Source of the DNA: a virus
Taxonomy: Duplodnaviria > Heunggongvirae > Uroviricota > Caudoviricetes
Strand: one strand, 5' to 3'
Virus record (IMG/VR): IMGVR_UViG_2711768001_000007
DNA length: 10,858 nt
The position numbers and the translations under genes are program-made. Shown here in pieces: positions 1-10,858 of the stretch. Positions within the stretch are counted from its first letter, which is position 1, and the number at the start of each line of letters is the position of its first letter. The notes beneath the pieces were generated by a model, which worked only from the letters and a program-made list of their open reading frames with translations, was not told where the DNA came from and searched no databases.

Positions 1-70
1 ATGATAGTTATTTATCATCTAGTGTTCGCGGGTGTTCGTGGTAGTGTTTTGTGTGCATTCATCGCTATGA
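1..70. repeat. Left terminal direct repeat, 70 bp, identical to 10789-10858; putative att core (attL side)
   Basis: Base-by-base comparison shows 1-70 and 10789-10858 are identical. It lies directly next to the integrase and clustered short repeats. It does not look like a tRNA 3' end. Confidence 0.8.
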
Positions 71-90
71 TTATAAAGGAAAATTTTGTT

Positions 91-164
91 TTCCTTGTTC
101 GCTCTTGTTCGTCACGGTTTGCCCTTGTACGATGCACGGTGTAGTCAATGGTGTAGTTAATTTT
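91..164. promoter_or_regulatory. Putative integrase arm-type sites: two 10-bp-phased TTGTTCG decamers (96-115) and tandem 12-mers GGTGTAGTCAAT/GGTGTAGTTAAT (138-161)
   Basis: Same motifs recur at the right end (10661-10717) in the same orientation, and TGTTCG decamers also sit inside the terminal repeat (22-41). Function is inferred from position near the att repeat and int. Confidence 0.4.
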
Positions 165-184
165 GATGACCGGAAACGCGAAAC

Positions 185-1423
185 ATGAGCAGCGCAATTC
201 ATAGACTTAGCGACACTCTTTTACGAAAATTAAGCGGATCACCAACCACAAAAAACGCCTTTTTTAATGACGGTGGCAATCTTAGCGTAAGACATTCCAC
301 CAGCGGCCTGTTAACCTGGTATTTCACTTACAGGGCCGGAACTGGCAGGCAGGTATCACCGGAACGCCTGAGACTGGGCAACTATCCCGATCTGAGCCTG
401 AAAGCAGCCAGGGAAAAAGCGGCACAGTGTCGCGCCTGGCTGGCGGAGGGGAAAAATCCACGCCATGAGCTTAATCACACAGTGCAGGAAGCGTTAGCCC
501 CTGTGACGGTTAAGGACGCGCTCACTTACTGGCTTGAGTCGTATGCGAAGGAAAAGCGCACTGACCACGAATCACTGAAAAGCCGTATCAATAAGCACAT
601 AATCAGCCAGATTGGTGCTATGCCGCTGGATAAATGCGAGCTACGCCACTGGCTGGCCTGTTTTGACCAGCTTGCTAAGCGTAATCCGGTATCAGCCGGC
701 TTTTTGTTGCAGGTATGCAAACAGGCGCTTAAGTACTGCCGTAAACGTCGCTACGCCGTCAGTAACGTTCTTGATGATATGGTCGTAGGTGATGTGGGAA
801 AAAAAGCAGAAATAAGCGAGCGAGTGCTAACAAACAAGGAGCTTGGCGAGCTACTCCGCGCACTGGATGAAAAAATTTTCCCGCCGTACTACAGCGCTTT
901 AATTCGCCTTCTGATTGTCTTCGGATGCCGTACCACTGAGCTAAGACGCTCCGAGGTTCGGGAATGGGATTTTAAAGAAATGCTCTGGACTGTGCCGAAA
1001 GAACACAGCAAAACGAAGGTAGCAATATTCAGGCCAATACCGGAAGCGATCTTGCCGTTCGTCATGAAGCTGGTGGAGCAGAACAGGCACACGGGCTTAT
1101 TGCTTGGAGAACTGAAAGGGCAATCATCCGTAGCAGAGTACGGAAGAACGGCACACAGACGCATTAATCAAACCCCCTGGTCGTTGCACGACATCCGGCA
1201 CACATTTACAACCATGCTGAACGATTTAGGCGTGGATCCGCATATTGTCGAACAGCTTACTGCCCACCAGATGCCAGGAATGCAACGCGTCTATAACCAC
1301 TCCCGTTATCTCGATGCAAAGCGTGACGCTCTTAATCTATGGGTAGACCGTCTCGAGCTTCTCCAGAACAATGATGAAAAAATCGTTGTTATGACCCCGC
1401 GAATTTACCCCCAAAATTCTTGA
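185..1423 (+). CDS. int: Site-specific tyrosine integrase, P4-like family
   Basis: 412-aa ORF. N-terminal region has the P4-integrase-like pattern (LSDTLL...FNDGGNLSVRHSTSGLLTWYFTYRAGTGRQ). C-terminal catalytic region carries GCRTTELRR (Arg), HDIRHTF (His-x-x-Arg) and RVYNHSRY (His, Tyr nucleophile). Confidence 0.9.
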   Translation: MSSAIHRLSDTLLRKLSGSPTTKNAFFNDGGNLSVRHSTSGLLTWYFTYRAGTGRQVSPERLRLGNYPDLSLKAAREKAAQCRAWLAEGKNPRHELNHTVQEALAPVTVKDALTYWLESYAKEKRTDHESLKSRINKHIISQIGAMPLDKCELRHWLACFDQLAKRNPVSAGFLLQVCKQALKYCRKRRYAVSNVLDDMVVGDVGKKAEISERVLTNKELGELLRALDEKIFPPYYSALIRLLIVFGCRTTELRRSEVREWDFKEMLWTVPKEHSKTKVAIFRPIPEAILPFVMKLVEQNRHTGLLLGELKGQSSVAEYGRTAHRRINQTPWSLHDIRHTFTTMLNDLGVDPHIVEQLTAHQMPGMQRVYNHSRYLDAKRDALNLWVDRLELLQNNDEKIVVMTPRIYPQNS

Positions 1424-1462
1424 CAAATTACGGCTGTTTTTTCTTTAAGAGATTACAGCCGT
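1420..1462 (+). promoter_or_regulatory. Inverted repeat ACGGCTGT/ACAGCCGT (1430-1437 / 1455-1462) with an overlapping TTGACA (1420-1425) at the int stop codon; possible operator or weak promoter
   Basis: Read directly from the sequence. No convincing -10 at proper spacing, so function is uncertain. Confidence 0.25.
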
Positions 1463-1842
1463 GAATAGATCTTAGAATATCGGGGAATATCTGCAAATAT
1501 CTTCTCTTTATATGTGTCAACTATCGAAAAAAATTGAAATGTCTTCTTCTGAGTTCTTATTCTCTGTTTCTTGATTGTTCCAACACCTGATGGTTTATCT
1601 ATTTGTTTTTAATGAGGTAATTCAGGTGACATGCCAAATGACGACATTTTTTGTTGCGTCGCTTAAAAACTCGTGACACGATTTTAAACACTAACGAGCT
1701 TCTACGAACCTTAGCGAACAAAGCCTTTAGTATGGTTGTGTTTTTAATTTAAGAGGTGAAAAAGAATCTAAGTAATATCCGATCTCATATATCTACAGCT
1801 AAGAGAAAAGTTTATATACGTAATTTTTATGTAGGTTTTTGT

Positions 1843-2052
1843 ATGCGTGAAATAAATGAAGATCGCGTAATCCGTGAGGATGAATGTCGTAAGTTAACTG
1901 GAGTGTGTCGCACTACACGCTACGAACTGGAGAAAAAAGGGAGCTTTCCGTCTCGCCGTAATCTTGGTGGGCGTTCTGTAGGTTGGCTGCTGTCCGAGGT
2001 TATGGAATGGGTTAAAAGCCGGGATCGCATTAATTCAGGTAAGGCAGCGTAA
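1843..2052 (+). CDS. alpA: AlpA-family (prophage CP4-57 regulatory protein-like) HTH regulator/excisionase
   Basis: 70-aa product from ATG 1843 (RBS-like TAGGT upstream). C-terminal GGRSVGWLLSEVMEWV matches the AlpA pattern (GVKSVGWIEAEIDEWL in E. coli AlpA, from memory). The track ORF begins at GTG 1756, but the N-terminal extension looks non-coding. Confidence 0.7.
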   Translation: MREINEDRVIREDECRKLTGVCRTTRYELEKKGSFPSRRNLGGRSVGWLLSEVMEWVKSRDRINSGKAA

Positions 2053-2166
2053 AGGGGAGCATATGACATATAAAACAAAGACGACCGGGGGCGGTCGCCA
2101 ATGGATACACACTAAACTTGAACGCATCACCAACAATGCCACATTTGCGGCTGGTGGGCAATGTGA

Positions 2167-2340
2167 TCAGTCAGATTTGGTTCGTTCCAAGGTTTGCAAC
2201 GAGAGCTTTTTCCTGTGCTCTTTAAGGAATTTCTCAAGAGCAAAAGCACATGGCGCGAATCTTTCTGATTCATGCTCTATCTTTCTGCGCCGTCTTTTCC
2301 GTGCCGGTGATAATGTTTTGGTCAATTCTTTATCGGTCAT
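2167..2340 (-). CDS. Small basic hypothetical protein (57 aa from Met-6; 62 aa if started at 2355)
   Basis: Minus-strand ORF 57 bp downstream of the RHH gene. AGGA lies 7 nt upstream of the ATG at 2340. Lys/Arg-rich (RKRRRRK). No recognised family. Confidence 0.4.
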   Translation of the reverse strand: MTDKELTKTLSPARKRRRRKIEHESERFAPCAFALEKFLKEHRKKLSLQTLERTKSD

Positions 2341-2397
2341 TGTGTTGTCCTGCATAGCAATGCGCCGTAGTTACTCACACCACGGCGCTGATAGTGA

Positions 2398-2595
2398 TTA
2401 TTCTGATTCTTTGGCCTTCCGGCGCTGTTCATATTTTAATTTGCGTCCACAGGCATCTAAGACCCATGCGGAAAAATTAGCACTAGGATTAGTTAATTTT
2501 TCTTGTTCAACGCTGGCATCAATCCCATCTATAAGCTCATGTGGGAATCGAATATTTTTCTTTGCTGATTTGTTGTTTGTGTTACCGCTAGACAT
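2398..2595 (-). CDS. Ribbon-helix-helix (Arc/MetJ/CopG-like) DNA-binding protein; candidate element repressor
   Basis: 65-aa ORF with strong RBS (GAGGTG 6 nt upstream). Segment IRFPHELIDGIDASVEQEKL...SANFSAWVLDA follows the P22 Arc pattern (FNLRWPREVLDLVRKVAEENGRSVNSEIYQRVMES, from memory). Sits divergently from an operator-bearing promoter region. Confidence 0.6.
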   Translation of the reverse strand: MSSGNTNNKSAKKNIRFPHELIDGIDASVEQEKLTNPSANFSAWVLDACGRKLKYEQRRKAKESE

Positions 2596-2622
2596 TGATG
2601 CACCTCACTTAAATGGACTTTA

Positions 2623-2702
2623 TGGGCGCACACAATACAGCAAAAAAAATGAGATGTTAAGTATTGACATGTGCGCACACATGATTTTAATCTGTGCGCA
2701 CA
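2623..2702. promoter_or_regulatory. Divergent promoter/operator region: TGGGCGCACA (2623-2632), TGTGCGCACA (2670-2679), TGTGCGCACA (2693-2702); rightward promoter -35 TTGACA 2664-2669 / -10 TTTAAT 2686-2691; leftward promoter -35 TGTTAA(rc) 2655-2660 / -10 ACAATA(rc) 2632-2637
   Basis: Two perfect 10-bp palindromes spaced 23 bp centre to centre, plus a 9/10 third copy 47 bp away. They overlap back-to-back sigma70-like hexamers with 16-17 bp spacers. Confidence 0.55.
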
Positions 2703-2800
2703 GTTTGAGTTTTGTCACTCAAATTAAGCAACGCCCCGCAGTGCTCGCAACACATGCAGGGCGTCTAACCACCAACGATAGCAAGAGTATCGAGGTAGCT

Positions 2801-3004
2801 ATGAGAAATCATACCACACACCCGCAAGGGCGGGACTCGCACAACCTGAATAAATATATCTGGCGTTTTATCGCCCTGAGCACGGCACAACCGCGCGTGA
2901 TTACCATTGAGGCCAGCAGCGAACAGGAAGCACGCCAGCAATCCCCGGCTGGCTGCGTGATGGTATTCGCCGCCCGTATTCGTCAGGGGGGGTACCATGC
3001 CTGA
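2801..3004 (+). CDS. Hypothetical small protein (68 aa), first ORF of the rightward early operon
   Basis: ATG 2801 preceded by GAGGT (2792-2796). In frame with the 3' end of the long track ORF 2063-3004. End overlaps the next ORF start. Low confidence. Confidence 0.3.
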   Translation: MRNHTTHPQGRDSHNLNKYIWRFIALSTAQPRVITIEASSEQEARQQSPAGCVMVFAARIRQGGYHA

Positions 3005-3317
3005 TATGTCAAATTACCAGTACCTGATTAATCCGCATTTTAACTGTGAGCATGATATTGCTAAAAAGGTTTATTCCGCTGCGGATGGGGCTACTGACAA
3101 TATATCAATGGCTGTTGCGTCAATTGGTAGCCTGATGTGGCATGCGTCAGAAAATGAGGACTATGACGAAAAGGCCATGCGCATTGATATGGGTAATATC
3201 GGTTTGTTACTGGCAATGCTTGGACATTTTGATATTTCGTTACGGTGCACCATTGAAAATGCCACAGATGCATTAAATGCTATAAAGAAAGCGAATACTG
3301 ATTCAAATCGGGGATAA
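2997..3317 (+). CDS. Hypothetical protein (106 aa)
   Basis: ORF with G-rich RBS (GGGGGGG) upstream; codirectional with the replication gene. No recognised motif. Confidence 0.45.
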   Translation: MPDMSNYQYLINPHFNCEHDIAKKVYSAADGATDNISMAVASIGSLMWHASENEDYDEKAMRIDMGNIGLLLAMLGHFDISLRCTIENATDALNAIKKANTDSNRG

Positions 3318-3323
3318 ATAATC

Positions 3324-3623
3324 ATGAGAACGTATTTATCTGGCTTGACTGCCAGCGGTTATGCACACCCCCAAATTATCCCCGGCGCTATTTATCTGGA
3401 TAAGAACGGTAACAGAGTAACGGTAAAAGAACTGATGTTTGACCGTGTGTATTTTATCCGTGATGGCTATTCATTTCTTAGTTCGCTGAACGTGGAGATC
3501 TTTATTTGCAGATTCCGGCGGGAAATCCCGACTTCCAGAAATAACCATGTGTCACGTGTGGATGTGGATAAAAAACTACAGGAACTGAAAAACATGATTG
3601 CCGCGTGGAGAGAGCAGAAATGA
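3324..3623 (+). CDS. Hypothetical protein (99 aa), translationally coupled to the replication gene
   Basis: ORF whose stop overlaps the rep start (ATGA at 3620-3623). No recognised motif. Confidence 0.5.
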   Translation: MRTYLSGLTASGYAHPQIIPGAIYLDKNGNRVTVKELMFDRVYFIRDGYSFLSSLNVEIFICRFRREIPTSRNNHVSRVDVDKKLQELKNMIAAWREQK

Positions 3624-5437
3624 AAAAAGCGCCAAATTTAAAACACCAGCCGCGTGACAAAATGACGGAAGTCATCATTTTTGCGGGTAGTGATGCGTGG
3701 GCACATGCGAAGCAGTGGCAGGAACAGGACGGGCGACTGGCTGGCGATAACGTGCCACCTGTCTGGCTTGGAGAGCAACAACTTGCCGAACTGGACAACC
3801 TGCAAATCGTACCGGATGGACGCTATCGCGTGCGTCTCTACCAGGCGGGGTTATTGCGTCCGGGGCTTGTTAATACCATCGGGCAGAAACTGGCAGCGGC
3901 AGGTGTCAGGGATGCTGATTATTACCCTGAAGGAATGCACAGCCAGAAACGGGAGAACTGGCGCGAATATCTGGAACGTGAGCGGGGAGAGCTGACGGAA
4001 AAGAAAAAGGTAGTTGAACTGCCTGTAAAGAAAAAAGAGCGGGTAAAAGACGATAACGCTTCATCACTGGCGCTTAACCAGATGGGAGCAAGTCAACGCG
4101 GCGAAGTTCTCCTGGCACATTATGGCGGTGAACTGGCGATTCATGCCGACTCTGACACTGTTCACCATTACAACGGCGTTGTATGGGAGCCAGTACAGGA
4201 TAAAGAATTACAGCGAGCTATGGCGCAGATTTTCATTGATGCGGAGATCAGCTATTCGCAGAACGCCATTAAATCGGCGGTCGATACCATGAAGTTAAGT
4301 TTGCCTGTAATGGGGAATACAGCCCGTAACCTGATTGGATTCAGTAACGGGGTATTTGATACCAGAACAGGTAATTTTCGGCAGCATAACAAAAACGACT
4401 GGTTGTTAATTGCCAGTGAATTACCTTTCAGCCCACCAGCAGAGGGGGAAACGCTGGCAACACATGCGCCGAATTTCTGGAAGTGGTTACGCCGTTCGGT
4501 GGCTGAGAATGACCGCAAGGCGGATCGCGTACTGGCTGCATTATTCATGGTGCTGGCGAACCGGTACGACTGGCAGTTATTCATTGAGGTAACAGGTCCA
4601 GGGGGAAGTGGTAAAAGCGTGATGGCGGAGATTTGCACCATGCTGGCGGGTAAGGCTAATACAGTATCAGCGAGCATGAAGGCGCTGGAAGATGCAAGGG
4701 AACGCGCGTTAGTGGTTGGCTTTTCGCTGATTATCATGCCGGATATGACCCGCTACGCTGGTGATGGGGCGGGAATTAAGGCTATTACAGGCGGTGACAA
4801 GGTGGCAATCGACCCAAAACATAAAGCCCCATATTCAACGCGTATCCCGGCAGTAGTGCTGGCGGTTAACAATAACGCTATGTCATTCAGTGACCGCAGT
4901 GGGGGGATCTCGCGCCGTCGGGTGATATTCAATTTTTCGGAAGTTGTACCGGAGAACGAACGCGATTCAATGCTGGCGGAAAAAATAGAAGGTGAGCTGG
5001 CGGTAGTGATTCGTCATCTGCTTACACGGTTTGCTGACCAGGACGAAGCCAGACGCCTTTTATATGAGCAGCAGAAATCAGAAGAAGCACTCGCGATAAA
5101 GCGTGAAGGTGATTCGCTGGTGGACTTCTGCGGCTATCTCATGGCGTCGGTAATGTGTGATGGCCTGTTAGTGGGTAATGCTGAAATTGTGCCATTCAGC
5201 CCGCGCAGGTATCTCTATCATGCCTATCTGGCTTATATGAAGGCACATGGGTTTGGTAAACCTGTAACACTGACGCGCTTCGGTAAAGATATGCCGGGGG
5301 CAATGGCGGAATATGGCAGGGAGTATATGAAACGGAAAACGAAGCACGGTTTGCGTTCAAACGTGACACTGACGGAGGAATCAGAAGACTGGATGCCATC
5401 ATGTGTATCGGTCACTAATGACGATAGCAAAAATTAA
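3620..5437 (+). CDS. Replication initiator: D5_N-like region plus SF3-type P-loop helicase (P4-family primase C-terminal-like)
   Basis: Walker A GPGGSGKS and Walker B-like LIIMPDM. D5_N-like segment IGFSNGVFDTRTGNFRQH...LPFSP. Start taken at ATG 3620 (GGAGAG RBS) rather than GTG 3605. Iteron array begins 14 nt after the stop. Confidence 0.85.
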   Translation: MKKAPNLKHQPRDKMTEVIIFAGSDAWAHAKQWQEQDGRLAGDNVPPVWLGEQQLAELDNLQIVPDGRYRVRLYQAGLLRPGLVNTIGQKLAAAGVRDADYYPEGMHSQKRENWREYLERERGELTEKKKVVELPVKKKERVKDDNASSLALNQMGASQRGEVLLAHYGGELAIHADSDTVHHYNGVVWEPVQDKELQRAMAQIFIDAEISYSQNAIKSAVDTMKLSLPVMGNTARNLIGFSNGVFDTRTGNFRQHNKNDWLLIASELPFSPPAEGETLATHAPNFWKWLRRSVAENDRKADRVLAALFMVLANRYDWQLFIEVTGPGGSGKSVMAEICTMLAGKANTVSASMKALEDARERALVVGFSLIIMPDMTRYAGDGAGIKAITGGDKVAIDPKHKAPYSTRIPAVVLAVNNNAMSFSDRSGGISRRRVIFNFSEVVPENERDSMLAEKIEGELAVVIRHLLTRFADQDEARRLLYEQQKSEEALAIKREGDSLVDFCGYLMASVMCDGLLVGNAEIVPFSPRRYLYHAYLAYMKAHGFGKPVTLTRFGKDMPGAMAEYGREYMKRKTKHGLRSNVTLTEESEDWMPSCVSVTNDDSKN

Positions 5438-5450
5438 ACTTATGGAATAA

Positions 5451-5673
5451 CTGTTCACCACTGTTCACCCTGTTATAAATATCTTTTATATCAGTATATT
5501 ATAGGGTGAACAGTTATTTATGAACTGTTCACCAAACTATTCACTGTTCACCTTTTTGATTGTTTATTGAGCTTCAAGGGTGAACAGTGGTGAACAGTTG
5601 GTGAATAGTTTTTGTGAAACTGTTCACCCCTTAACATTATGAATTAAAAGATAAAATATCAAAAGGTGAACAG
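5451..5673. repeat. Iteron-type replication origin: about 9-10 copies of GGTGAACAG / CTGTTCACC in both orientations within AT-rich DNA
   Basis: Copies at 5451-5459, 5461-5469, 5505-5513, 5525-5533, 5544-5552, 5579-5587, 5589-5597, 5600-5608 (degenerate), 5620-5628, 5665-5673. The core matches the TGTTCACC type I iteron of the P4 ori/crr as I recall it. Confidence 0.8.
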
Positions 5674-5724
5674 GTGAAGGGTTAAAACGCAAAAATTTTA
5701 ATTTACTGCTGTGAGATAAAGCCT

Positions 5725-5970
5725 ATGACAGCGAAGCACATAAAAAAATCACAATCGCACGCCCTTGATTTGACGGAACACTGGTTAAGGGTGTCGATAA
5801 AAATCATCGACCGCAACGCCGGGGAAGGATATGCGAAAGCACATCCCGAACTGATTAGCGCATTCATGACAACGGCAGCTGCAAACTTTGCCACGCTGAC
5901 AGAACGGGAGATTGCCGAAGCGGAACAGGTGACAACCATCAACGTTAAAACCGGAGAGCAGACAGCATGA
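5725..5970 (+). CDS. Hypothetical protein (81 aa), translationally coupled to the SSB-like gene
   Basis: ORF with ATGA overlap to the next gene (5967-5970). No recognised motif. Confidence 0.45.
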   Translation: MTAKHIKKSQSHALDLTEHWLRVSIKIIDRNAGEGYAKAHPELISAFMTTAAANFATLTEREIAEAEQVTTINVKTGEQTA

Positions 5971-6389
5971 CAGCACAGATAGCGGCTTACGGGCGGCTGG
6001 TGGCTGACCCGCAGTTAAAGACCACCAGCAAGGGTACACAAATGACGATGGCGAGTATGGCGGTCCCACTTCCGTGCAGCCAGGCAGATGACGGAACGGC
6101 GACGATGTGGTTATCCGTCCTGGCGTTTGGCAGACAGGCCGAAGCACTGGCAAAGCACCGCAAGGGTGAACTCCTGAGCGTGGCGGGTAACATGCAGGTG
6201 AGCCAGTGGACCGGACAGAACGGGGAGACGCGGCAGGGCTGGCAGGTTATCGCAGACAGCGTAATCAGTGCGAGAACGGCGCGACCGGGCGGCAAAAAAG
6301 GCCAACAGGGGCAGGCTACTGATGCACTGAGCAGAGCAAAACAACAGGCGGGAAATGATGATCCGTACGGGGATAACATACCGTTTTAA
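5967..6389 (+). CDS. ssb: Single-stranded DNA-binding protein homolog (OB fold) with C-terminal acidic ...DNIPF tip
   Basis: 140-aa product aligns by eye with E. coli SSB: LSVLAFGRQAE vs HRVVLFGKLAE, VSQWTGQNGETRQ vs RTRKWTDQSGQDR, and C-terminal DDPYGDNIPF vs DFDDDIPF. Confidence 0.75.
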   Translation: MTAQIAAYGRLVADPQLKTTSKGTQMTMASMAVPLPCSQADDGTATMWLSVLAFGRQAEALAKHRKGELLSVAGNMQVSQWTGQNGETRQGWQVIADSVISARTARPGGKKGQQGQATDALSRAKQQAGNDDPYGDNIPF

Positions 6390-6403
6390 GCAACGAGTAA
6401 CAG

Positions 6404-6428
6404 AAGCCGGAGCAATCCGGCTTTTTTA
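6404..6428 (+). terminator. Rho-independent terminator-like hairpin after the SSB-like gene
   Basis: Stem AGCCGG (6405-6410) / CCGGCT (6417-6422), 6-nt loop, then T-run 6422-6427. Confidence 0.6.
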
Positions 6429-6497
6429 TGGGTCCTCCCGGTGTAGTGACCTGCCACGGGGCGGGAGCGTCGCGGAAAAAGGCTGGTTTTTGCATTT
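6429..6497 (+). repeat. Conserved ~70-bp element, copy 1 (about 92% identical to 8964-9035)
   Basis: GGGTCCTCCCGGTG...CCACGGGGCGGGAGCG.CGCGGAAAAAGGCT.GTTTTTGCATTTTCA. Internal dyad CTCCCG/CGGGAG and GGTG/CCAC. Differences between copies cluster in the putative loop. Confidence 0.7.
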
Positions 6498-6688
6498 TCA
6501 TGGCGGCGGCAGCATGTGTAGTAATTTATTGATAATTAAAAGTTATTTCTGTTTTCACCTGTACAATATTTTTTTCTCCCTGTCATTAGACCAGTTTGCA
6601 ATTAATTGAAATATATAAATAAATCTGTTTTTCACCTGCCAGGTGGAGTTGCCTGTGTCAAAACGTGTTCAGATGGCGGGATATTTAT

Positions 6689-6711
6689 GCCGGATTTTAT
6701 CCGGCTTTTTT
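6689..6711 (+). terminator. Rho-independent terminator-like hairpin in the AT-rich region before the capsid operon
   Basis: Stem GCCGGAT (6689-6695) / ATCCGGC (6699-6705), then 6 T. A 13-bp palindrome CACCTGcCAGGTG lies upstream at 6633-6645. Confidence 0.5.
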
Positions 6712-6813
6712 GTGTCTGAATCTCATTAATCTATTTTTATGATAGAAATATGTTTATCTACCACTTTTATCGATCAATAATGTGCACAGTTTAGTCAGTA
6801 AGAGGAAGTTACT

Positions 6814-7023
6814 GTGAGTTGTATTAATGACCTGAACACGGGCGATATCAGGGGTGGTTCCGTTCATCTGGATGCGCAGACCGTTATGCGCCTTAAGCAG
6901 TACAGGATCGACCATATAAATCATCATCCTGACCAACCATTACCAGGTGTGGCGCAGATTGTCAGACATGCCGTAAACACCTGGCTTAATCAGAATGGTT
7001 TTGCATCGGTGGGGGAACAATGA
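6814..7023 (+). CDS. Hypothetical small protein (69 aa), possibly RHH-like, translationally coupled to the protease-capsid gene
   Basis: GTG start 6814 with strong RBS AAGAGGA (6800-6806). Stop overlaps capsid start (ATGA 7020-7023). RHH assignment is a guess from a beta-strand then two-helix pattern. Confidence 0.45.
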   Translation: MSCINDLNTGDIRGGSVHLDAQTVMRLKQYRIDHINHHPDQPLPGVAQIVRHAVNTWLNQNGFASVGEQ

Positions 7024-8933
7024 ATCGCTGGTACACCATTAAGGCGGCGGATGTTCGCGGAGCGGCGGATATATCTATCTATGAGGAGATTGGCGGCTTC
7101 GGTGTTACTGCAAAGCAGTTCGCGGAAGACCTGAAAGCCCTTGGCGATGTTTCACATATCAATCTGAGGATCCATTCACCAGGTGGTGATGTGTTTGAAG
7201 GCATCGCCATCTATAACCTGCTACGGAATCATCCGGCAGACATTACGGTTTATATCGATGGTGTTGCGGCTTCAATGGCTTCGGTGGTCGCAATGGCTGG
7301 CGATCGTGTTGTGATGCCGGAAAACGCCATGATGATGATACATAAGCCGTGGGGTATCTCTGGCGGAAATGCTGGTGATATGCGTGATTATGCTGATTTG
7401 CTGGATAAGGTGGAAACCGTGTTAGTCCCTGCTTATGCCAGAAAAACGGGCAAATCAGCACAGGAAATTACCGCCATGCTGGAAGATGAAACCTGGATGG
7501 ACGGGAAAGAATGCCTTAAGCACGGTTTTGCTGATGAATTGTTGCCATCCGTCAGAGCAATGGCGCGAATTGAATCGAAGCGCACAGGAGATTTTTTACA
7601 TATGCCGGAAACCATTAAAGGAATGATTACACCGCCACAGGGAGCGGCAAATATTGCTGGTAATGAACAGAAACGCATCAATGGAATAAGTGAAGTGTTT
7701 AGCCTGTTCGGCAGTCGTTACGACGGGATCAAAATGGCGTGTCTGGAAGATGCATCATGTACACCGGAAATGGCCCGTGAAAAGCTGTTGAACGAGCTGG
7801 GGCGCGAGTCCACGCCATCCAATAAAAATACCCCGGCTCATATCTATGCCGGAAACGGAAACATAACAGGTGATGCAATTCGTCAGGGGCTTTATTCCCG
7901 TCTTGGGTATGAACGGCCTGAACGAGGCAACCCTTACGCGATGATGAGTCTTTTTGAAATGGCCCAGGCATCACTGGTTGATCGTGGTATCACTGTGAGC
8001 GGTTTTATTAATCGCTCGCAGGTTGTTAATGCGGCTTTTACACACAGCAGCAGTGATTTTTCTCATATTCTGGCTGGTGGGGCTGAAAAATCTGTACTGA
8101 AAGGCTGGCAGGACAGCGGCGAAACGTTCCAGAAATGGACGCGTACCGGTTCGCTTTCAAACTTTCATGAAGCAAAGCGCGTTGGTCTGAATGGTTTTTC
8201 AAAGCTGGATAAAGTACCGGAAGGTGCGGAATATAAATACATCACCACCAGCGATAAAGGTGTACCTATTGCGCTGGCCACGTACGGGAATATATTTTCC
8301 GTTACCCGTCAGGCCATTATCAACGATGACCTGACCCAGTTAACTACAATCCCCATGGCGATGGGACGCGCAGCTGCCAGAACAGTTGGCAATCTGGTTT
8401 ATCTCCTGTTAACCAGCAACGGCAAGTTTACGGATGGTAAAGCGTTATTCCATGCCGATCATAAAAATCTTATTGCGAAGGATATGGACATGGAGGGGCT
8501 TAACGAAGCCCGTAAGCTGATGCGCCTCCAGGAAGACGCTAACGGCGATTCGCTGAATATTACCCCTGCATTTGTCCTGGTCCCCGCCGCGCTGGAGTCT
8601 GCCGCACATCGCGCCATTCTGTCATCGTCATCACTCTTTCCGGTTGATGGCGTGGGCACTATCAATCAGAACCCCGGCATCATTAACGTGGTGAAAGATA
8701 TGGCGGAGGTAATCGTTGAGCCACGTCTTGATAAAGCCAATAACAAGGAGTGGTATGTGGCAGCGGCGAAGGGTATGGACACGATAGAGGTCGCTTATCT
8801 TGATGGTATTGATACGCCATATCTTGAGGAGCAGGAGGGCTTTACTGTTGATGGCGTCGCCTGGAAGGTGCGCATAGATGCAGGTGTCGCGGCCCTCGAC
8901 TATCGCGGATTACTGAAATCGAGTGGAGCATGA
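7020..8933 (+). CDS. Fusion protein: N-terminal ClpP-family prohead protease plus C-terminal probable phage major capsid protein
   Basis: N-terminal ~190 aa align with ClpP: IHSPGGDV vs INSPGGVI, GVAASMAS vs GQAASMGA (catalytic Ser), MIHKPW vs MIHQP (catalytic His). The C-terminal ~440 aa have capsid-like character (ending ...GVAALDYRG); that part is a judgement call. Confidence 0.8.
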   Translation: MNRWYTIKAADVRGAADISIYEEIGGFGVTAKQFAEDLKALGDVSHINLRIHSPGGDVFEGIAIYNLLRNHPADITVYIDGVAASMASVVAMAGDRVVMPENAMMMIHKPWGISGGNAGDMRDYADLLDKVETVLVPAYARKTGKSAQEITAMLEDETWMDGKECLKHGFADELLPSVRAMARIESKRTGDFLHMPETIKGMITPPQGAANIAGNEQKRINGISEVFSLFGSRYDGIKMACLEDASCTPEMAREKLLNELGRESTPSNKNTPAHIYAGNGNITGDAIRQGLYSRLGYERPERGNPYAMMSLFEMAQASLVDRGITVSGFINRSQVVNAAFTHSSSDFSHILAGGAEKSVLKGWQDSGETFQKWTRTGSLSNFHEAKRVGLNGFSKLDKVPEGAEYKYITTSDKGVPIALATYGNIFSVTRQAIINDDLTQLTTIPMAMGRAAARTVGNLVYLLLTSNGKFTDGKALFHADHKNLIAKDMDMEGLNEARKLMRLQEDANGDSLNITPAFVLVPAALESAAHRAILSSSSLFPVDGVGTINQNPGIINVVKDMAEVIVEPRLDKANNKEWYVAAAKGMDTIEVAYLDGIDTPYLEEQEGFTVDGVAWKVRIDAGVAALDYRGLLKSSGA

Positions 8934-8937
8934 CAAC

Positions 8938-8963
8938 AAGGGCGGCGATAGCCGCCTTTTTTT
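8938..8963 (+). terminator. GC hairpin plus T-run after the capsid gene; terminator-like, and also contains a 9-nt match to lambda cosN
   Basis: Stem GGCGGC (8941-8946) / GCCGCC (8951-8956), loop GATA, T-run 8957-8963. GGGCGGCGA (8940-8948) matches the first 9 nt of lambda cosN GGGCGGCGACCT as I recall it. Confidence 0.5.
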
Positions 8964-9035
8964 ACGGGTCCTCCCGGTGGGGTGGTCTGCCACGGGGCGG
9001 GAGCGGCGCGGAAAAAGGCTAGTTTTTGCATTTTC
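8964..9035 (+). repeat. Conserved ~70-bp element, copy 2 (about 92% identical to 6429-6497)
   Basis: See copy 1. Same position relative to a GC hairpin plus T-run. Confidence 0.7.
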
Positions 9036-9190
9036 ATTCGTCATCATCATCTTTCTATAATGTTGAATTTTAAGTGTTTTTATTTTTGGTATGTTAATTT
9101 TGCTTATTTTGTGTTCAACATACAGCGCGTTTTTTGACCTTTTTTAAAAGATATTTGCAAGATGCATTTTTAAAACATTCTGGAGCGGGT

Positions 9191-9676
9191 ATGGATCGGG
9201 AACTGAAAAATCTGATGCTGAACATTAACCAGCTGGCGGCGATAGCGGGAATATGTCGCCAGACTGCGGCGGCAAGGCTGAAAAATATCCAGCCAGCCGG
9301 AGGACATGACAAGCTGAAACTCTATCGGGTGACTGACATTCTGACTTGTTTTCTTGATCTTCCCGTTCCGGCATCACTGGAAGAAATGGAGCCACACGAC
9401 CGTAAGGCCTGGTATCAGTCCGAACGTGAGCGCCTCAAGTTCGAACAGGAAACGGCGCAACTCATACCCGCCGATGATGTGCGAAAAGAGATGGCTATAT
9501 GGGGAGAAATCGTAAGCGAGGAACTGGAAAAACTCCCCAGTATTCTGGCACGTGATGTTGGGCTTAAACCGATGGCAGTAAACAGAGTGCAGTCAATTAT
9601 TGACGATTTGTGTAATCAGATTATCAGCCGGATGGTAAAAAATGACGTAGTGAATGAGGTCGCAAAACAGGCATGA
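9191..9676 (+). CDS. Terminase small subunit, lambda Nu1-like
   Basis: From ATG 9191 (GGAG RBS 9183-9186). NQLAAIAGICRQTAAARLKNIQPAGGHDKLKLYRVTDIL parallels lambda Nu1 KKQLADIFGASIRTIQNWQEQGMPVLRGGGKGNEVLYDSAAVI (from memory). The track ORF starts at TTG 9134, which I consider less likely. Confidence 0.7.
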   Translation: MDRELKNLMLNINQLAAIAGICRQTAAARLKNIQPAGGHDKLKLYRVTDILTCFLDLPVPASLEEMEPHDRKAWYQSERERLKFEQETAQLIPADDVRKEMAIWGEIVSEELEKLPSILARDVGLKPMAVNRVQSIIDDLCNQIISRMVKNDVVNEVAKQA

Positions 9677-9960
9677 TAATGACCGAATCTGAAATACTGC
9701 GATTAATCCGCTGTGCTGGTGGAATTAGCCAGTTGGCTGACGAACAGGCCGCGCAGCCGGATACAGTCACCGCTGAAAATTACGCGCGTGTGGTGGCTGA
9801 GGTGATGCGCCGTGACGGTATTGAGCTTAACGGCGTGGATATGCGCAACATACGAACCAGAGTCCTTGAGTTGCTGGCATACCGTCGCCGTTCTCAACAA
9901 CGGAGGGAGAGCGCGAAAAATACTTACCAGTGGAAGAAGCCGGAACGGTTGCAGCGGTAG
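9673..9960 (+). CDS. Hypothetical 95-aa protein with weak resemblance to the N-terminal Nu1-binding segment of lambda large terminase gpA
   Basis: ATGA overlap with the terS-like gene, as Nu1 and A overlap in lambda. SEILRLIRCAGGISQLADEQAAQPDTVTAENY vs gpA SQVNRLRHFVRAGLRSLFRPEPQTAVEWADANY. Similarity ends after ~40 aa and the ORF stops at 95 aa. Confidence 0.45.
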   Translation: MIMTESEILRLIRCAGGISQLADEQAAQPDTVTAENYARVVAEVMRRDGIELNGVDMRNIRTRVLELLAYRRRSQQRRESAKNTYQWKKPERLQR

Positions 9961-10299
9961 ATTCCTGATATTCAGGAAAACCACGAATCTGTGGGGTTTA
10001 CTGGCGCGGTTACGGCGGTGACACGCACCGAGGCAGAACAATTACCGTAGGTTAAAGCGACAGTATTCACACCAAAGGCAGAAATTAGCGGTTAACGTAA
10101 CTGACTGATATTTTCGGGAACAGCCAACGGCTGAGGCCGGAGCTATAAAAATAGCTTTGGGTACAGTCCTCAGTTTTGAGGGATGTTAACCAACTGAATA
10201 ATAAGCAAACCTCAAAATTGAGTTTTGTATCTGCCTGAGTTATTTCTGTGCTAACTTGCTGATATTCCCGATAGCGCAAAAGTGCGTTGGCTGGTGGGT

Positions 10300-10319
10300 G
10301 AGTTGCAGATCTGCAACTC
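10300..10319. repeat. Perfect 20-bp palindrome GAGTTGCAGATCTGCAACTC
   Basis: Reverse complement is identical; in a non-coding region with other dyads at 10338-10358 (ACTACCC/GGGTAGT) and 10392-10412 (GATACCC/GGGTATC). Confidence 0.7.
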
Positions 10320-10445
10320 GACCATGAAATTACGGAAACTACCCGTAGTTTGGGTAGTAAGAGTAACACCCAGATTTTGGGGCTTACTCGCGATACCCAA
10401 ATAAAGGGTATCTGTGGAAGAAATATCGTTTCTCATATGTGAGTA

Positions 10446-10516
10446 CCGAGGGCGGAATTCCGCCTTCGGTTACTTATTGTGCTCATGCACAGGGAGGGGC
10501 GGGTCAAATCCCTGTG
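10446..10516. repeat. Cluster of three hairpin/palindrome elements: near-perfect 24-bp palindrome with GGCGGAATTCCGCC core (10451-10464), TGTGC/GCACA (10478-10491), CACAGGGA/TCCCTGTG (10488-10516)
   Basis: Read directly from the sequence; non-coding. Could be a structured RNA or protein-binding sites. Confidence 0.6.
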
Positions 10517-10660
10517 ACCTGACGTCTTCCGGACTGCCAGCCCCATCGATTTTTTATACCCGCGAAAAATGAAAAACGCTTCACGCTGGTGGGCCTGATG
10601 CCGATAACTGGTTTCATGACTGATAGCCGGAAAATGATAACGATTAAAGCGTGTTGATCT

Positions 10661-10717
10661 TTGTTCGTGGTTGTTCGATATTGTTCGTGGAACGGTGTAG
10701 TTAATGGTGTAGTTAAT
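10661..10717. promoter_or_regulatory. Putative integrase arm-type sites at the right end: three 10-bp-phased TTGTTCG decamers (10661-10690) and tandem GGTGTAGTTAAT x2 (10694-10717)
   Basis: Mirror of the motif content at 91-164, same orientation, about 70 bp inside the right terminal repeat. Confidence 0.4.
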
Positions 10718-10788
10718 TTTACTGTTTTTGACGAGCTTATTGTTTGCAACTCAATGAAAAATAAAGGCTAATAAGCCAAATACTATAA

Positions 10789-10858
10789 ATGATAGTTATT
10801 TATCATCTAGTGTTCGCGGGTGTTCGTGGTAGTGTTTTGTGTGCATTCATCGCTATGA
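10789..10858. repeat. Right terminal direct repeat, 70 bp, identical to 1-70; putative att core (attR side)
   Basis: Exact identity to 1-70. Confidence 0.8.

Follow-up and report, generated by a model that had tools for sequence, protein, structure and literature searches.

A circular 10.8-kb element is very probably a Gram-negative PICI of the E. coli EcCI family that carries a protease-capsid fusion and a small terminase homologue

The stretch of viral DNA analyzed here (IMG/VR virus record IMGVR_UViG_2711768001_000007; 10,858 nucleotides, hereafter the window) consists of a single 10,788-bp unit followed by a 70-bp wrap-around, and carries the following genes and features.

1–18, with a second copy at 10789–10806, plus strand: att core ATGATAGTTATTTATCAT, attL/attP version (by comparison with chromosomal attL/attR)
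95–161, plus strand: left-arm repeats, two copies of TTGTTCG (95–111) and two of GGTGTAGTYAAT (138–161) (repeat family D3)
185–1423, plus strand: int, P4-type tyrosine integrase with an arm-binding N-domain (Pfam Arm-DNA-bind_3, 1e-16; Phage_integrase, 1e-17)
1843–2052, plus strand: alpA regulator (Pfam Phage_AlpA, 5e-16)
2167–2355, minus strand: phrog_21027 protein (PHROG, 2e-14)
2398–2595, minus strand: YlcI/YnfO DUF3950 protein (PHROG, 1e-27; DUF3950, 2e-6)
2654–3004, plus strand: Icd-like gene (host cell-division inhibitor-like), conserved portion 2801–3004 (PGAP annotation, loci L001 and L002)
2997–3317, plus strand: hypothetical 106-aa protein (phrog_15327, 2e-71)
3324–3623, plus strand: DUF4222 protein, 99 aa (Pfam DUF4222, 9e-17)
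3620–5437, plus strand: Pri-Rep replication protein with D5_N, SF3 helicase-type DUF5906 and a Pox_D5 C-terminal domain (Pfam)
5452–5672, no strand: replication origin with nine TGTTCACC iterons, oriented both ways and grouped in sets about A+T-rich stretches
5725–5970, plus strand: conserved 81-aa hypothetical protein (phrog_1231, 6e-49)
5967–6389, plus strand: ssb, single-stranded DNA-binding protein (Pfam SSB, 7e-16)
6425–6662, plus strand: cos1, cdtI/Tritos/HannyBb-type cosB-like region (by comparison with phage cdtI)
6814–7023, plus strand: 69-aa protein directly 5' of the capsid gene (phrog_4934, 2e-33)
7020–8933, plus strand: ClpP-like prohead protease/HK97-fold major capsid fusion, 637 aa (CLP_protease, 2e-35; Phage_capsid_4, 1e-53)
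8961–9190, plus strand: cos2, phi458/mEp460-type cosB-like region directly 5' of terS
9191–9676, plus strand: small terminase homologue, DUF1441 family, 161 aa (Pfam DUF1441, 3e-35; phrog_141, 1e-57)
9679–9960, plus strand: conserved 93-aa hypothetical protein, the last gene of E. coli PICIs (phrog_1561, 5e-52)
10492–10574, plus strand: cos3, homologous to the cos region of SfV/SfI/SfII/ST64B/phiP27-type (HK97-like) phages
10789–10858, plus strand: 70-bp wrap-around copy of 1–70, forming with 10661–10788 the attP junction

Pfam and PHROG searches and, for the iterons, a motif count bore out the int, alpA, rep, iterons, ssb, protease-capsid fusion and terS that an earlier note on this DNA had described, at the same positions; among the ORFs of the window there were no matches to a portal, large terminase, tail or lysis protein or to P4 sid, psu or delta, as the note had also said. 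Int is 95% identical to Int of the PICI EcCIIHE3034 and 78% identical to that of EcCICFT073, and the corresponding values for AlpA are 100% and 59%; by analogy with EcCICFT073, AlpA may be the helper-induced activator of the island. The small minus-strand pair (2167–2595) is divergent from the Icd-like gene, and EcCICFT073 is arranged alike. Of the "repressor switch" proposed earlier, it is this divergent arrangement that stands, the word repressor being interpretive. PGAP flags a pseudogene fragment at 2063–2402. The Icd-like gene is 93% identical to its counterpart in EcCIIHE3034 and 97% identical to that in EcCICFT073, and a PADLOC search with the 106-aa protein (2997–3317) gave no match. 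The 99-aa DUF4222 protein is 33–34% identical to the equally placed DUF4222 proteins of EcCICFT073 and EcCIIHE3034, and its position suggests that it is a divergent counterpart, without an RGD motif, of RgdR (c1493/ECs1581), a protein described in PMC3378721.

The Pri-Rep protein matches phrog_864 ("DNA primase", 2e-191), is 48–49% identical to Pri-Rep of EcCICFT073 and EcCIIHE3034, and occurs as an exact copy on 640 contigs. Directly 3' of the rep gene lies the iteron array, which contains the inverted repeats I1 and I2 and agrees with the published layout of PICI origins; the window holds 10 copies of TGTTCACC, against 0.40 expected by chance, and nine of the ten fall within 5452–5672. Downstream, the 81-aa protein is 87.5% identical to its counterparts in both EcCICFT073 and EcCIIHE3034, whereas SSB is 92% identical to that of EcCIIHE3034 and 71% to that of EcCICFT073. 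The 93-aa protein is 77% identical to the product of the last gene of EcCIIHE3034 and 73% to that of EcCICFT073. The backbone as a whole (int, alpA, the Icd-like gene, DUF4222, pri-rep, the iteron origin, ssb and the 93-aa gene) is collinear and homologous with those of these two named PICIs, and relative to them the difference is confined to the late module.

In that module the capsid fusion is 58% identical over its full length to cdtI gp05 and phi458 Orf29, and its Ser85 and His108 line up with the catalytic Ser and His of ClpP. Relative to the phage proteins, the fusion has indels in common with homologues from Klebsiella, Dickeya and Serratia, and it belongs to a lineage, borne by satellites, in which indels are conserved, which is a modest new point. 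The exact capsid protein was found in 238 collection blocks. The capsid-terS cassette also occurs within PICI backbones of Dickeya and Serratia, joined there to different replication modules, and these PICIs have a 59-aa ORF at the position of the 69-aa protein. The DUF1441 protein, whose PHROG family is labeled "terminase small subunit", is 68% identical to phi458 TerS over residues 1–151, while against cdtI TerS the C-terminal half alone aligns (49%). It is thus a small-terminase homologue, as the earlier description "Nu1-like terS" held, but its family is DUF1441: it has no PDB or Nu1 match and does not belong by sequence to the Nu1 family. Taken together, the fusion and the DUF1441 TerS appear to have been copied from lambdoid phages of the cdtI/phi458 type. 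Where relatives have lambda E/D-like genes plus Rpp, the window carries the fusion and the DUF1441 TerS.

Both phi458 and cdtI TerS end in an acidic C-terminal tail that is missing from the TerS homologue, whose binding of the large terminase may therefore differ from theirs. This raises the possibility that, within the same PICI, the DUF1441 protein is Rpp-like, forming a heterocomplex with helper TerS that is redirected to the island cosB and blocks helper packaging. The gene sits where EcCICFT073 and EcCIIHE3034 have RppA/"terS", its product combines 68% identity to a helper-type TerS with a non-acidic stretch of the last ~10 residues, unlike phi458 and cdtI, and an evolutionary origin of Rpp proteins from TerS has been proposed (PMC6739421). 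However, the sequence is unlike solved RppC and the lambda Nu1 N-domain, similarity to the small-terminase protein of EcCIIHE3034 is marginal (E=0.013), the protein has the full length of phage TerS, and the protein of EcCI18098 is classed as TerS in PMC6092414. We consider an Rpp-like role somewhat unlikely, and below we treat the protein as an island TerS homologue.

Three cos-like sites were recognized in the window, the lambda cosQ and cosN reference sequences being those of PMC6092414 Fig. S5. Cos1 comprises a cosQ-like TTTATGGGTCCTCCC (6425–6439) and a cosN-like GGGCGGGAGCGT (6459–6470), and positions 6459–6662 are 94.6% identical to positions 1–204 of the phage cdtI record. In cos2, a cosQ-like TTTACGGGTCCTCCC (8961–8975) and a cosN-like GGGCGGGAGCGG (8995–9006) precede terS, and the region shares 78% identity with that 5' of phi458 terS and 84% with the mEp460 right end. 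The cosN motif has two matches in the window versus none expected. Cos3 is 95–96% identical to genome ends in 16 phage records, of which phiP27 annotates the matching stretch as "cos-site", and it is kept at 96–100% in 12 related E. coli elements. Each of the three sites thus resembles, at the level of sequence, a separate phage lineage, again a modest new point.

The earlier note took the perfect 70-bp direct repeat as the boundary of the element. The repeat is present (1–70 and 10789–10858, 100% identity), and the fact that it is exact and starts at the att core speaks for a reading in which it represents attL and attR, the element being integrated and the window an excerpt from a chromosome. 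In E. coli chromosomes, however, where copies up to 100% identical to window 1–10806 lie between cspD/yljB and clpS, the sole flanking duplication is an 18-bp core, ATGATAGTTAT(T/C)TATCAT, the two copies of which differ by one mismatch (attL is ATGATAGTTATTTATCAT and attR is ATGATAGTTATCTATCAT in loci L001 and L002). This core alone recurs at the right end in all 12 chromosomal copies; to the right of attR these have chromosomal DNA (GTGGAGTAG...) leading into clpS, not window 19–70, and window 10807–10858 was not found there. The right end of the window instead runs from right arm through core to left arm, which is the order of an attP junction, and the first base of the window is exactly the first base common to attL and attP. 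The junction was found in none of 5,426 complete E. coli genomes, in which the best coverage ends at window 10806. From the order at the right end, and from the duplication of the core only together with the absence of the junction from these genomes, it follows that the repeat is a circular or concatemer overlap across attP and not an att duplication, and the chromosomal-excerpt reading has next to no probability. Searches of IMG/VR, JGI metagenomes and GTDB representative genomes likewise gave no match to the junction, so that support for the circular form comes from one contig. The empty att site that had been sought was recovered, the modelled site being unbroken in 5,057 of the 5,426 E. 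coli genomes (best matches 100% over 418 bp). In the att arms lie five of the six matches to TTGTTCG and all four matches to GGTGTAGTYAAT (none expected); the left-arm copies of both are presumed to be arm-type Int or RDF binding sites.

Named PICIs occupy this att site too: Table S1 of PMC6092414 places EcCIIHE3034 (10.5 kb) and EcCI18098 (10.8 kb) at cspD-clpS, and that paper gives ATGATAGTTAT as the core of both and states that both encode TerS. It also reports transfer of 18098::cat at 10–110 transductants/ml, a low frequency from its native host. Such low transfer, the clearly lambdoid origin of the head genes, terS and the cos regions, and the PGAP-flagged fragment could be accommodated if the element were a decaying, immobile remnant of a lambdoid prophage that by chance has kept int, two head genes and a replicon. 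We find this very unlikely. Every core gene is intact, the replicon is of the PICI/P4 type and not lambdoid, and the layout is kept across genera with varied replication modules; the exact copies of the capsid protein and of Pri in many collection blocks and contigs likewise argue against decay, the window itself is the excised form, and the empty sites are precise.

We conclude that the window is very probably an excised, circular or concatemeric Gram-negative PICI of the E. coli EcCI family, of SatelliteFinder "Type A", an assignment made from Pfam and PHROG matches standing in for the SatelliteFinder profiles. The PICI definition (PMC10085698) lists integrase, AlpA, primase-replicase, a capsid gene and a small terminase, and treats portal, tail and holin as "forbidden"; the window has five of the five core components in canonical order and a size near the 9.5-kb median, contains none of the components forbidden for Type A (tail, holin, portal, head-tail connector/adaptor), and shows no definition-level differences. 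Its host is E. coli, the species with 97% of Type A elements (PMC10085698). The earlier note, which rightly described a complete, compact integrative satellite with P4-type integration and lambdoid packaging (the integrase is of the P4 type, the backbone is alpA/pri-rep and the packaging signals are lambdoid, of the cos type), could name no class for it. A new satellite class between classical and capsid-forming PICIs, with its own capsid and terS and no portal, would draw on two observations, namely that the fusion and the DUF1441 TerS have no protein-level homologue in EcCIIHE3034 or EcCICFT073, the two best-studied relatives, and that conserved indels mark the satellite-borne fusions off from the phage proteins as a lineage. 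However, capsid plus terS without portal is the published Type A definition (PMC10085698), capsid genes are frequent in reference Gram-negative PICIs (21 of 29; PMC10111431), Int and AlpA are 78–100% identical to those of named PICIs, the same cassette lies inside Dickeya and Serratia PICI backbones, and a 10.8-kb TerS-encoding PICI has already been published for the identical att site, PICIs at this site having been listed and experimentally tested (PMC6092414). A new class is therefore extremely unlikely. Because an own capsid and small terminase without a portal are usual for PICIs, the element is an ordinary member of a well-described kind of satellite; with the repeat a circularization overlap and the content that of a described family, the earlier claim of novelty falls.

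If the island works like EcCICFT073, a helper phage would induce alpA, and AlpA would turn on the rightward operon and Int-mediated excision. Pri-Rep would then bind the TGTTCACC iterons and, with SSB assisting, convert the circle to concatemers. The island TerS homologue may bind cosB beside cos2 and recruit the large terminase of the helper, while through cos1 and cos3 helpers of the cdtI type and the SfV/ST64B type could each use their own terminase to package the island. Island DNA would enter heads on the helper portal, helper tails then being attached, and a head of lambdoid size would be filled by four units (43.2 kb); alternatively, the island capsid protein might make or reshape smaller shells.

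Among known systems, a possible functional analogue of the fusion is Ccm of SaPIbov5, which reportedly makes small capsids: it too is a homologue of the helper's major capsid protein and is carried by a satellite whose packaging is of the cos type, but the system is Gram-positive and Ccm is unrelated in sequence to the fusion. P4 resembles the window in its P4-type integrase, AlpA/Vis-like regulator, Icd-like gene, D5_N/SF3-helicase replication protein and size of ~11 kb, but the window lacks sid, psu, delta and epsilon, and its cos and head genes are of lambdoid and not of P2 type. The cf-PICIs, such as EcCIEDL933, were reportedly described by Alqurainy et al. in 2023. Their int, alpA and pri-rep are of the kind found in the left half of the window, and like them the window encodes its own HK97-fold capsid protein, prohead protease and TerS; however, the cf-PICI definition adds a portal, head-tail adaptor and connector and large terminase (PMC10085698), all of which the window lacks.

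EcCICFT073, the prototype Gram-negative cos PICI, matches in order throughout (int, alpA, minus-strand YlcI, icd-like, DUF4222, pri-rep, origin, 81/85-aa gene, ssb, capsid gene, packaging-specificity gene and conserved last gene) and, like the window, has several cos sites with lambda-like cosQ/cosN. Its cos packaging is helper-dependent, via the Rpp mechanism (PMC6739421), and its capsid gene has no detectable phenotype (PMC6092414). It differs in its att site (ycfD-phoQ), in carrying PerC, in its lambda E-like capsid with a separate decoration protein, in having RppA and no TerS, and in having two published cos sites (PMC6739421; PMC6092414), none of SfV/ST64B type, against three in the window. 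EcCIIHE3034 has the att site, core and gene order of the window, but where the window encodes the protease-capsid fusion and DUF1441 it has a lambda E-like capsid gene, a D-like decoration gene and a 180-aa "terminase small subunit" that is unrelated, and, unlike the window, it has no cos3. The closest published relative is EcCI18098, which has its att site, core and 10.8-kb size in common with the window, and the primer arms of which match at 9911–9959 (45/49) and 10657–10706 (49/50), at 92–98% identity; from these two 50-nt arms, the size, the site and the TerS statement we infer the identity of the two elements.

The window comprises a 10,788-bp unit whose first 70 bases recur unchanged after its end (positions 1–70 are identical to positions 10789–10858); the earlier note had taken this perfect direct repeat to bound the element. 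E. coli chromosomes match the window at up to 100% identity, with at least 80% of it held by 52 complete genomes, and the element is located in them between cspD/yljB and clpS. The left chromosomal junction reads GATAG, then ATGATAGTTATTTATCAT, then CTAGTGTTCG, and the right junction reads ACTATAA, then ATGATAGTTATCTATCAT, then GTGGAGTAG, continuing into clpS. Only an 18-bp core is duplicated in the chromosomes, with one mismatch; the remaining 52 bases of the window's terminal repeat were absent to the right of attR in all 12 of the 12 chromosomal copies. The right end of the window runs from right arm through core to left arm, an arrangement that is the attP junction. This junction was present in none of 5,426 complete E. 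coli genomes, whose best matches end at position 10806, and an exact search for it gave no matches, and no independent circular forms, in IMG/VR, JGI metagenome contigs or GTDB representative genomes. Because duplication in the chromosomes is confined to the core, and because the attP junction is missing from them, the 70-bp repeat comes from a circular or concatemeric molecule whose sequence wraps around at the end of the contig. It is therefore no att duplication but a circularisation overlap that spans attP, the artefact that the earlier note had itself raised as a possibility. The empty att site that the earlier note had proposed to look for in related genomes does exist: when we joined both flanks through one core, the modelled site was contiguous in 5,057 of the 5,426 E. 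coli genomes, with best matches at 100% identity. These findings make the window a sequence-level example of an excised PICI and indicate that, on a small contig, perfectly repeated ends can stem from an attP wrap-around and not from an att duplication.

The first base of the window is exactly the first base common to attL and attP, a start point that would be the expected outcome of the assembly graph if the sample mixed integrated and excised copies. Both att arms carry two copies of GGTGTAGTYAAT (none expected), and TTGTTCG occurs in two copies on one side and three on the other; these repeated motifs are consistent with putative arm-type binding sites. The published 'att core' of EcCIDI14, CGGTGTAGTTAATGGTGTAGTTAATT (Fillol-Salom et al. 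2018, Table S1), is identical to the arm-type repeat of the element at 10693–10718 (and 138–161), so the published sequence may mark an arm site and not the core where crossover takes place. A tRNA search of the window returned none, so the island does not target a tRNA.

The gene content described in the earlier note (int, alpA, a replication gene with iterons, ssb, a protease–capsid fusion and terS) was recovered by ORF, Pfam and PHROG scans, and its principal features are as follows.

185–1423, plus strand: P4-type tyrosine integrase (Int), at the left end of the element
1843–2052: AlpA (Phage_AlpA, 5e-16), 100% identical to the AlpA of EcCIIHE3034, a published PICI at cspD–clpS
3620–5437, plus strand: D5_N/DUF5906/Pox_D5 replication protein (Pri-Rep), by Pfam
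5967–6389, plus strand: SSB
7020–8933, plus strand: ClpP-like protease fused to an HK97-type major capsid protein
9191–9676, plus strand: DUF1441 protein, of a PHROG 'terminase small subunit' family

The same scans of the window bore out the claim that portal, large terminase, tail and lysis genes, as well as P4 sid, psu and delta, are missing. All genes point rightward except for two small ORFs, which are leftward in EcCICFT073 (the prototype Gram-negative cos PICI) too. What had been called a repressor switch stands as an arrangement, two small leftward ORFs facing an Icd-like gene; the repressor label is interpretive. The sequence TGTTCACC occurs 10 times in the window, against 0.40 copies expected by chance, and nine of these iterons lie within 5452–5672, directly 3' of the replication gene and in both orientations around A+T-rich stretches, marking out a putative iteron origin in the place after Pri-Rep where PICI criteria require one.

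A scan of the whole window against Rfam (E ≤ 1) yielded one spurious eukaryotic lncRNA match and no C4/CI-type immunity RNA near or upstream of the Icd-like gene. PADLOC detected no known defence system among ten proteins (those of nine small or hypothetical ORFs, and Pri-Rep), and a promoter and terminator consensus scan gave counts no higher than in shuffled controls. We rejected a 313-aa plus-strand ORF (2063–3004) as a large regulator: it has no family match and overlaps two supported minus-strand genes, and in RefSeq/PGAP its 3' part is the Icd-like gene and its 5' part a pseudogene fragment, which corresponds to a BRO-N remnant in EcCIIHE3034. At 6754–6927 on the minus strand RefSeq annotates a 57-aa ORF, whereas some gene callers report an overlapping 69-aa ORF on the plus strand (6814–7023; phrog_4934, 2e-33), and it is the latter that is probably the real gene. 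A DUF4222 protein (3324–3623) is the positional counterpart of the virulence regulator RgdR (ECs1581/c1493) and has PGA at residues 20–22 where RgdR has its RGD motif.

The earlier note could not name a class for this content. However, the SatelliteFinder core of a PICI (PMC10085698) consists of an integrase, an AlpA/MerR/Stl regulator, a primase–replicase, a capsid gene and a small terminase, and its forbidden components are tail, holin, portal and head–tail (connector, adaptor) genes. As judged by Pfam and PHROG surrogates, the element has all five core components, clustered, and none that is forbidden, so what had seemed unplaceable is a textbook Type A PICI, and the proteins match a well-described satellite family. 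The element likewise has the features by which Fillol-Salom et al. (2018) recognise Gram-negative PICIs, namely int at the left end, a shared specific att site, an AlpA-family regulator after int, mainly rightward genes and, by sequence, a Pri-Rep gene followed by sets of iterons around an A+T-rich region. Two further PICI traits are that lysis, tail and other phage-making genes were absent from the ORF list and from the Pfam and PHROG scans, and that its size, 10,788 bp against 43–47 kb for candidate helpers, fits the expected quarter to third of a helper genome. Two other memberships were considered and rejected: the portal, head–tail adaptor/connector and large terminase (with HNH) that define cf-PICIs were absent from the ORFs and from the Pfam and PHROG scans, and for P4-like satellites no Psu, Sid, Delta or Ash match was found in Pfam or PHROGs, and epsilon was absent. 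As a class, the element adds nothing: a capsid gene is present in 21 of the 29 reference Gram-negative PICIs (PMC10111431), and descriptions of Gram-negative PICIs that combine a capsid and a small-terminase gene and lack a portal go back to 2018, with hundreds now catalogued.

Three segments of the window resemble packaging signals. An 80-nt repeat (6422–6501 and 8958–9037; 91% identical) holds lambda-like cosQ and cosN motifs, the cosQ-like 15-mers having one or two mismatches to lambda cosQ and the cosN-like 12-mers lying 19 nt downstream (GGGCGGGAGCGT at 6459 and GGGCGGGAGCGG at 8995, compared with GGGCGGCGACCT in lambda). By sequence, then, cosQ and cosN stand at lambda-like spacing and are followed by cosB next to terS, as in a lambda-type cos. 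The records of phages cdtI and Tritos start exactly at the first cosN (cos1), and window 6459–6662 is 94.6% identical to cdtI 1–204. Downstream of the second cosN (cos2), the sequence resembles the region before terS of phi458 and mEp460 (78–84%) and runs into the terS of the island. The third segment (cos3; 10492–10574, 83 bp) is 95–96% identical to the genome ends of SfV, SfI, SfII, ST64B and related HK97-like phages, carries a 'cos-site' annotation in phiP27, and is a putative non-lambdoid packaging signal. Twelve related E. coli elements conserve all three segments, and in the Dickeya and Serratia islands a cos-like segment immediately follows the capsid gene. EcCICFT073 has two cos sites, for a reason described in the literature as an open question. 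Since each cos of the element matches a different phage lineage, the sequences suggest a wider helper range. If the three sites do serve three helper lineages, this would bear on PICI helper range and on the reason for multiple cos sites in some PICIs; three lineage-specific cos sites may be new, as a modest addition.

The small terminase had been described as Nu1-like. By sequence it is instead a DUF1441 protein, for which a PDB search (E < 0.05) returned no match to Nu1 or RppC; it shares 68% identity with phi458 TerS across residues 1–151, aligns with cdtI TerS in its C-terminal half only, and matches its EcCIIHE3034 counterpart at no better than E = 0.013. Its C-terminus (…VKNDVVNEVAKQA) differs from those of the phi458 and cdtI proteins, which end strongly acidic (…GADDEEELQQEE and …IPDEEGESL), and this non-acidic tail may engage the large terminase differently. 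The missing acidic tail would also fit a protein that acts like Rpp, by pairing with the TerS of the helper, and the DUF1441 protein could do so, but it bears no sequence similarity to RppC.

Phages cdtI and phi458 have a single head protein, with which the protease–capsid fusion shares 58% identity across its entire length. In these phages terS, terL, a head–tail adaptor, the portal and the fusion gene are adjacent, whereas the island keeps only the first and last of this block, the genes between them being missing. In the assembly collection, 238 blocks contain an identical fusion protein, and some of the elements that carry it occupy a second position, between rcnR and thiM. Three loci (L015–L017; 2529–12941) have the same replication and late modules, with the identical fusion, and a different integration module (a 406-aa integrase, a DUF6387 gene and a 74-aa AlpA) at this rcnR–thiM site, which indicates modular exchange of the integration module. 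Homologues of the same length and 70–80% identity occur in Klebsiella, Dickeya, Pectobacterium, Serratia and others, those of Dickeya and Serratia in int–alpA–primase islands. We aligned the proteins of the window, Klebsiella, Dickeya and Serratia, together with one further 72%-identical homologue, with the phage proteins. Relative to the latter, all share a 7-aa N-terminal extension, a deletion that removes 28–29 aa from the linker behind the protease domain and a 7–15-aa insertion in the capsid domain; the satellite context was confirmed for the window, Dickeya and Serratia proteins only. In alignment, Ser and His of the protease coincide with the catalytic residues of ClpP, and the fusion gene looks both functional and specialised; the capsid gene of EcCICFT073 has no phenotype. 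A satellite-borne protease–capsid lineage with conserved indels may likewise be new, again modestly so. In the Dickeya PICI (L018 and L019; 11156–13987), which is otherwise PICI-like and adjoins fis, a 943-aa lambda-type tape-measure gene, an unexpected tail gene, directly follows the fusion homologue.

The integration site and core, the excised form, the PICI replicon with its iterons and the three cos homologues were found in the element itself; the steps of its life cycle we infer from EcCICFT073. A helper phage would induce alpA, and AlpA would switch on the rightward operon and Int-mediated excision, after which Pri-Rep and SSB would replicate the circle. The island TerS would bind cosB at cos2 and recruit the helper's large terminase, with cos1 and cos3 used directly by other helpers, and the DNA would enter heads built on the helper portal and then joined to helper tails. 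Four units amount to 43.2 kb, or 92–100% of the 43–47-kb genomes of lambdoid candidate helpers, a length in keeping with the published finding that multimers of EcCICFT073 are packaged in full-size heads. Small, island-sized heads made from the island's own capsid protein are also possible. We consider it unlikely that this PICI lineage is a multi-helper specialist that combines three cos sites with a satellite-specific fusion and assembles island-sized shells on a stolen helper portal. In such a scheme cos1 may pair with cdtI, cos2, through the island's own TerS, with phi458/mEp460, and cos3 with SfV/ST64B HK97-like phages; if true, it would provide a functional intermediate between classical and capsid-forming PICIs and an answer to why PICIs carry several cos sites.

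The element is of a known kind, and the published EcCI18098 is probably closely related to it. Its att site and core (ATGATAGTTAT…) are identical to those published for EcCIIHE3034 and EcCI18098, the two E. coli PICIs with this core at cspD–clpS in Table S1 of Fillol-Salom et al. 2018 (PMC6092414), which are 10.5 and 10.8 kb long, respectively, and are both stated to encode TerS (PMC6092414). EcCI18098 was marked with lambda-Red primers whose two homology arms match window 9911–9959 (45/49) and 10657–10706 (49/50). The marked derivative, 18098 ORF17-ORF18::cat, gave 10–110 transductants per ml after mitomycin C (PMC6092414); if the cat cassette replaced the DNA between both arms, it deleted the region with cos3, a loss that could contribute to the low reported transfer. 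In some genomes (L008, 17374–21914; L012, 17017–21914) a second island, with int, a 605-aa protein, AlpA and DUF3987, lies near the element, approximately 0.5–0.9 kb downstream of clpA.

P4 shares with the element only int, alpA, the icd-like gene and a D5_N helicase-type protein. The compared backbone genes stand in the same order in the element, EcCIIHE3034 and EcCICFT073, and are 33%–100% identical.

Protein identity of the element's backbone genes to EcCIIHE3034 and EcCICFT073, respectively
Int: 95%, 78%
AlpA: 100%, 59%
Icd-like: 93%, 97%
DUF4222 (position of RgdR): 34%, 33%
Pri-Rep: 48%, 49%
81-aa protein: 87.5%, 87.5%
SSB: 92%, 71%
Last gene: 77%, 73%

The late module alone is without a protein-level homologue in these two PICIs, and both of them lack cos3. 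Their late genes encode a lambda E-like capsid protein, a D-like decoration protein and Rpp or 'terS', whereas those of the element are the 69-aa gene, the protease–capsid fusion and the DUF1441 protein. PICIs that have an att site and integrase in common can thus swap their late module, lambda E/D with Rpp for a ClpP–capsid fusion with a DUF1441 TerS, to suit another type of helper head.
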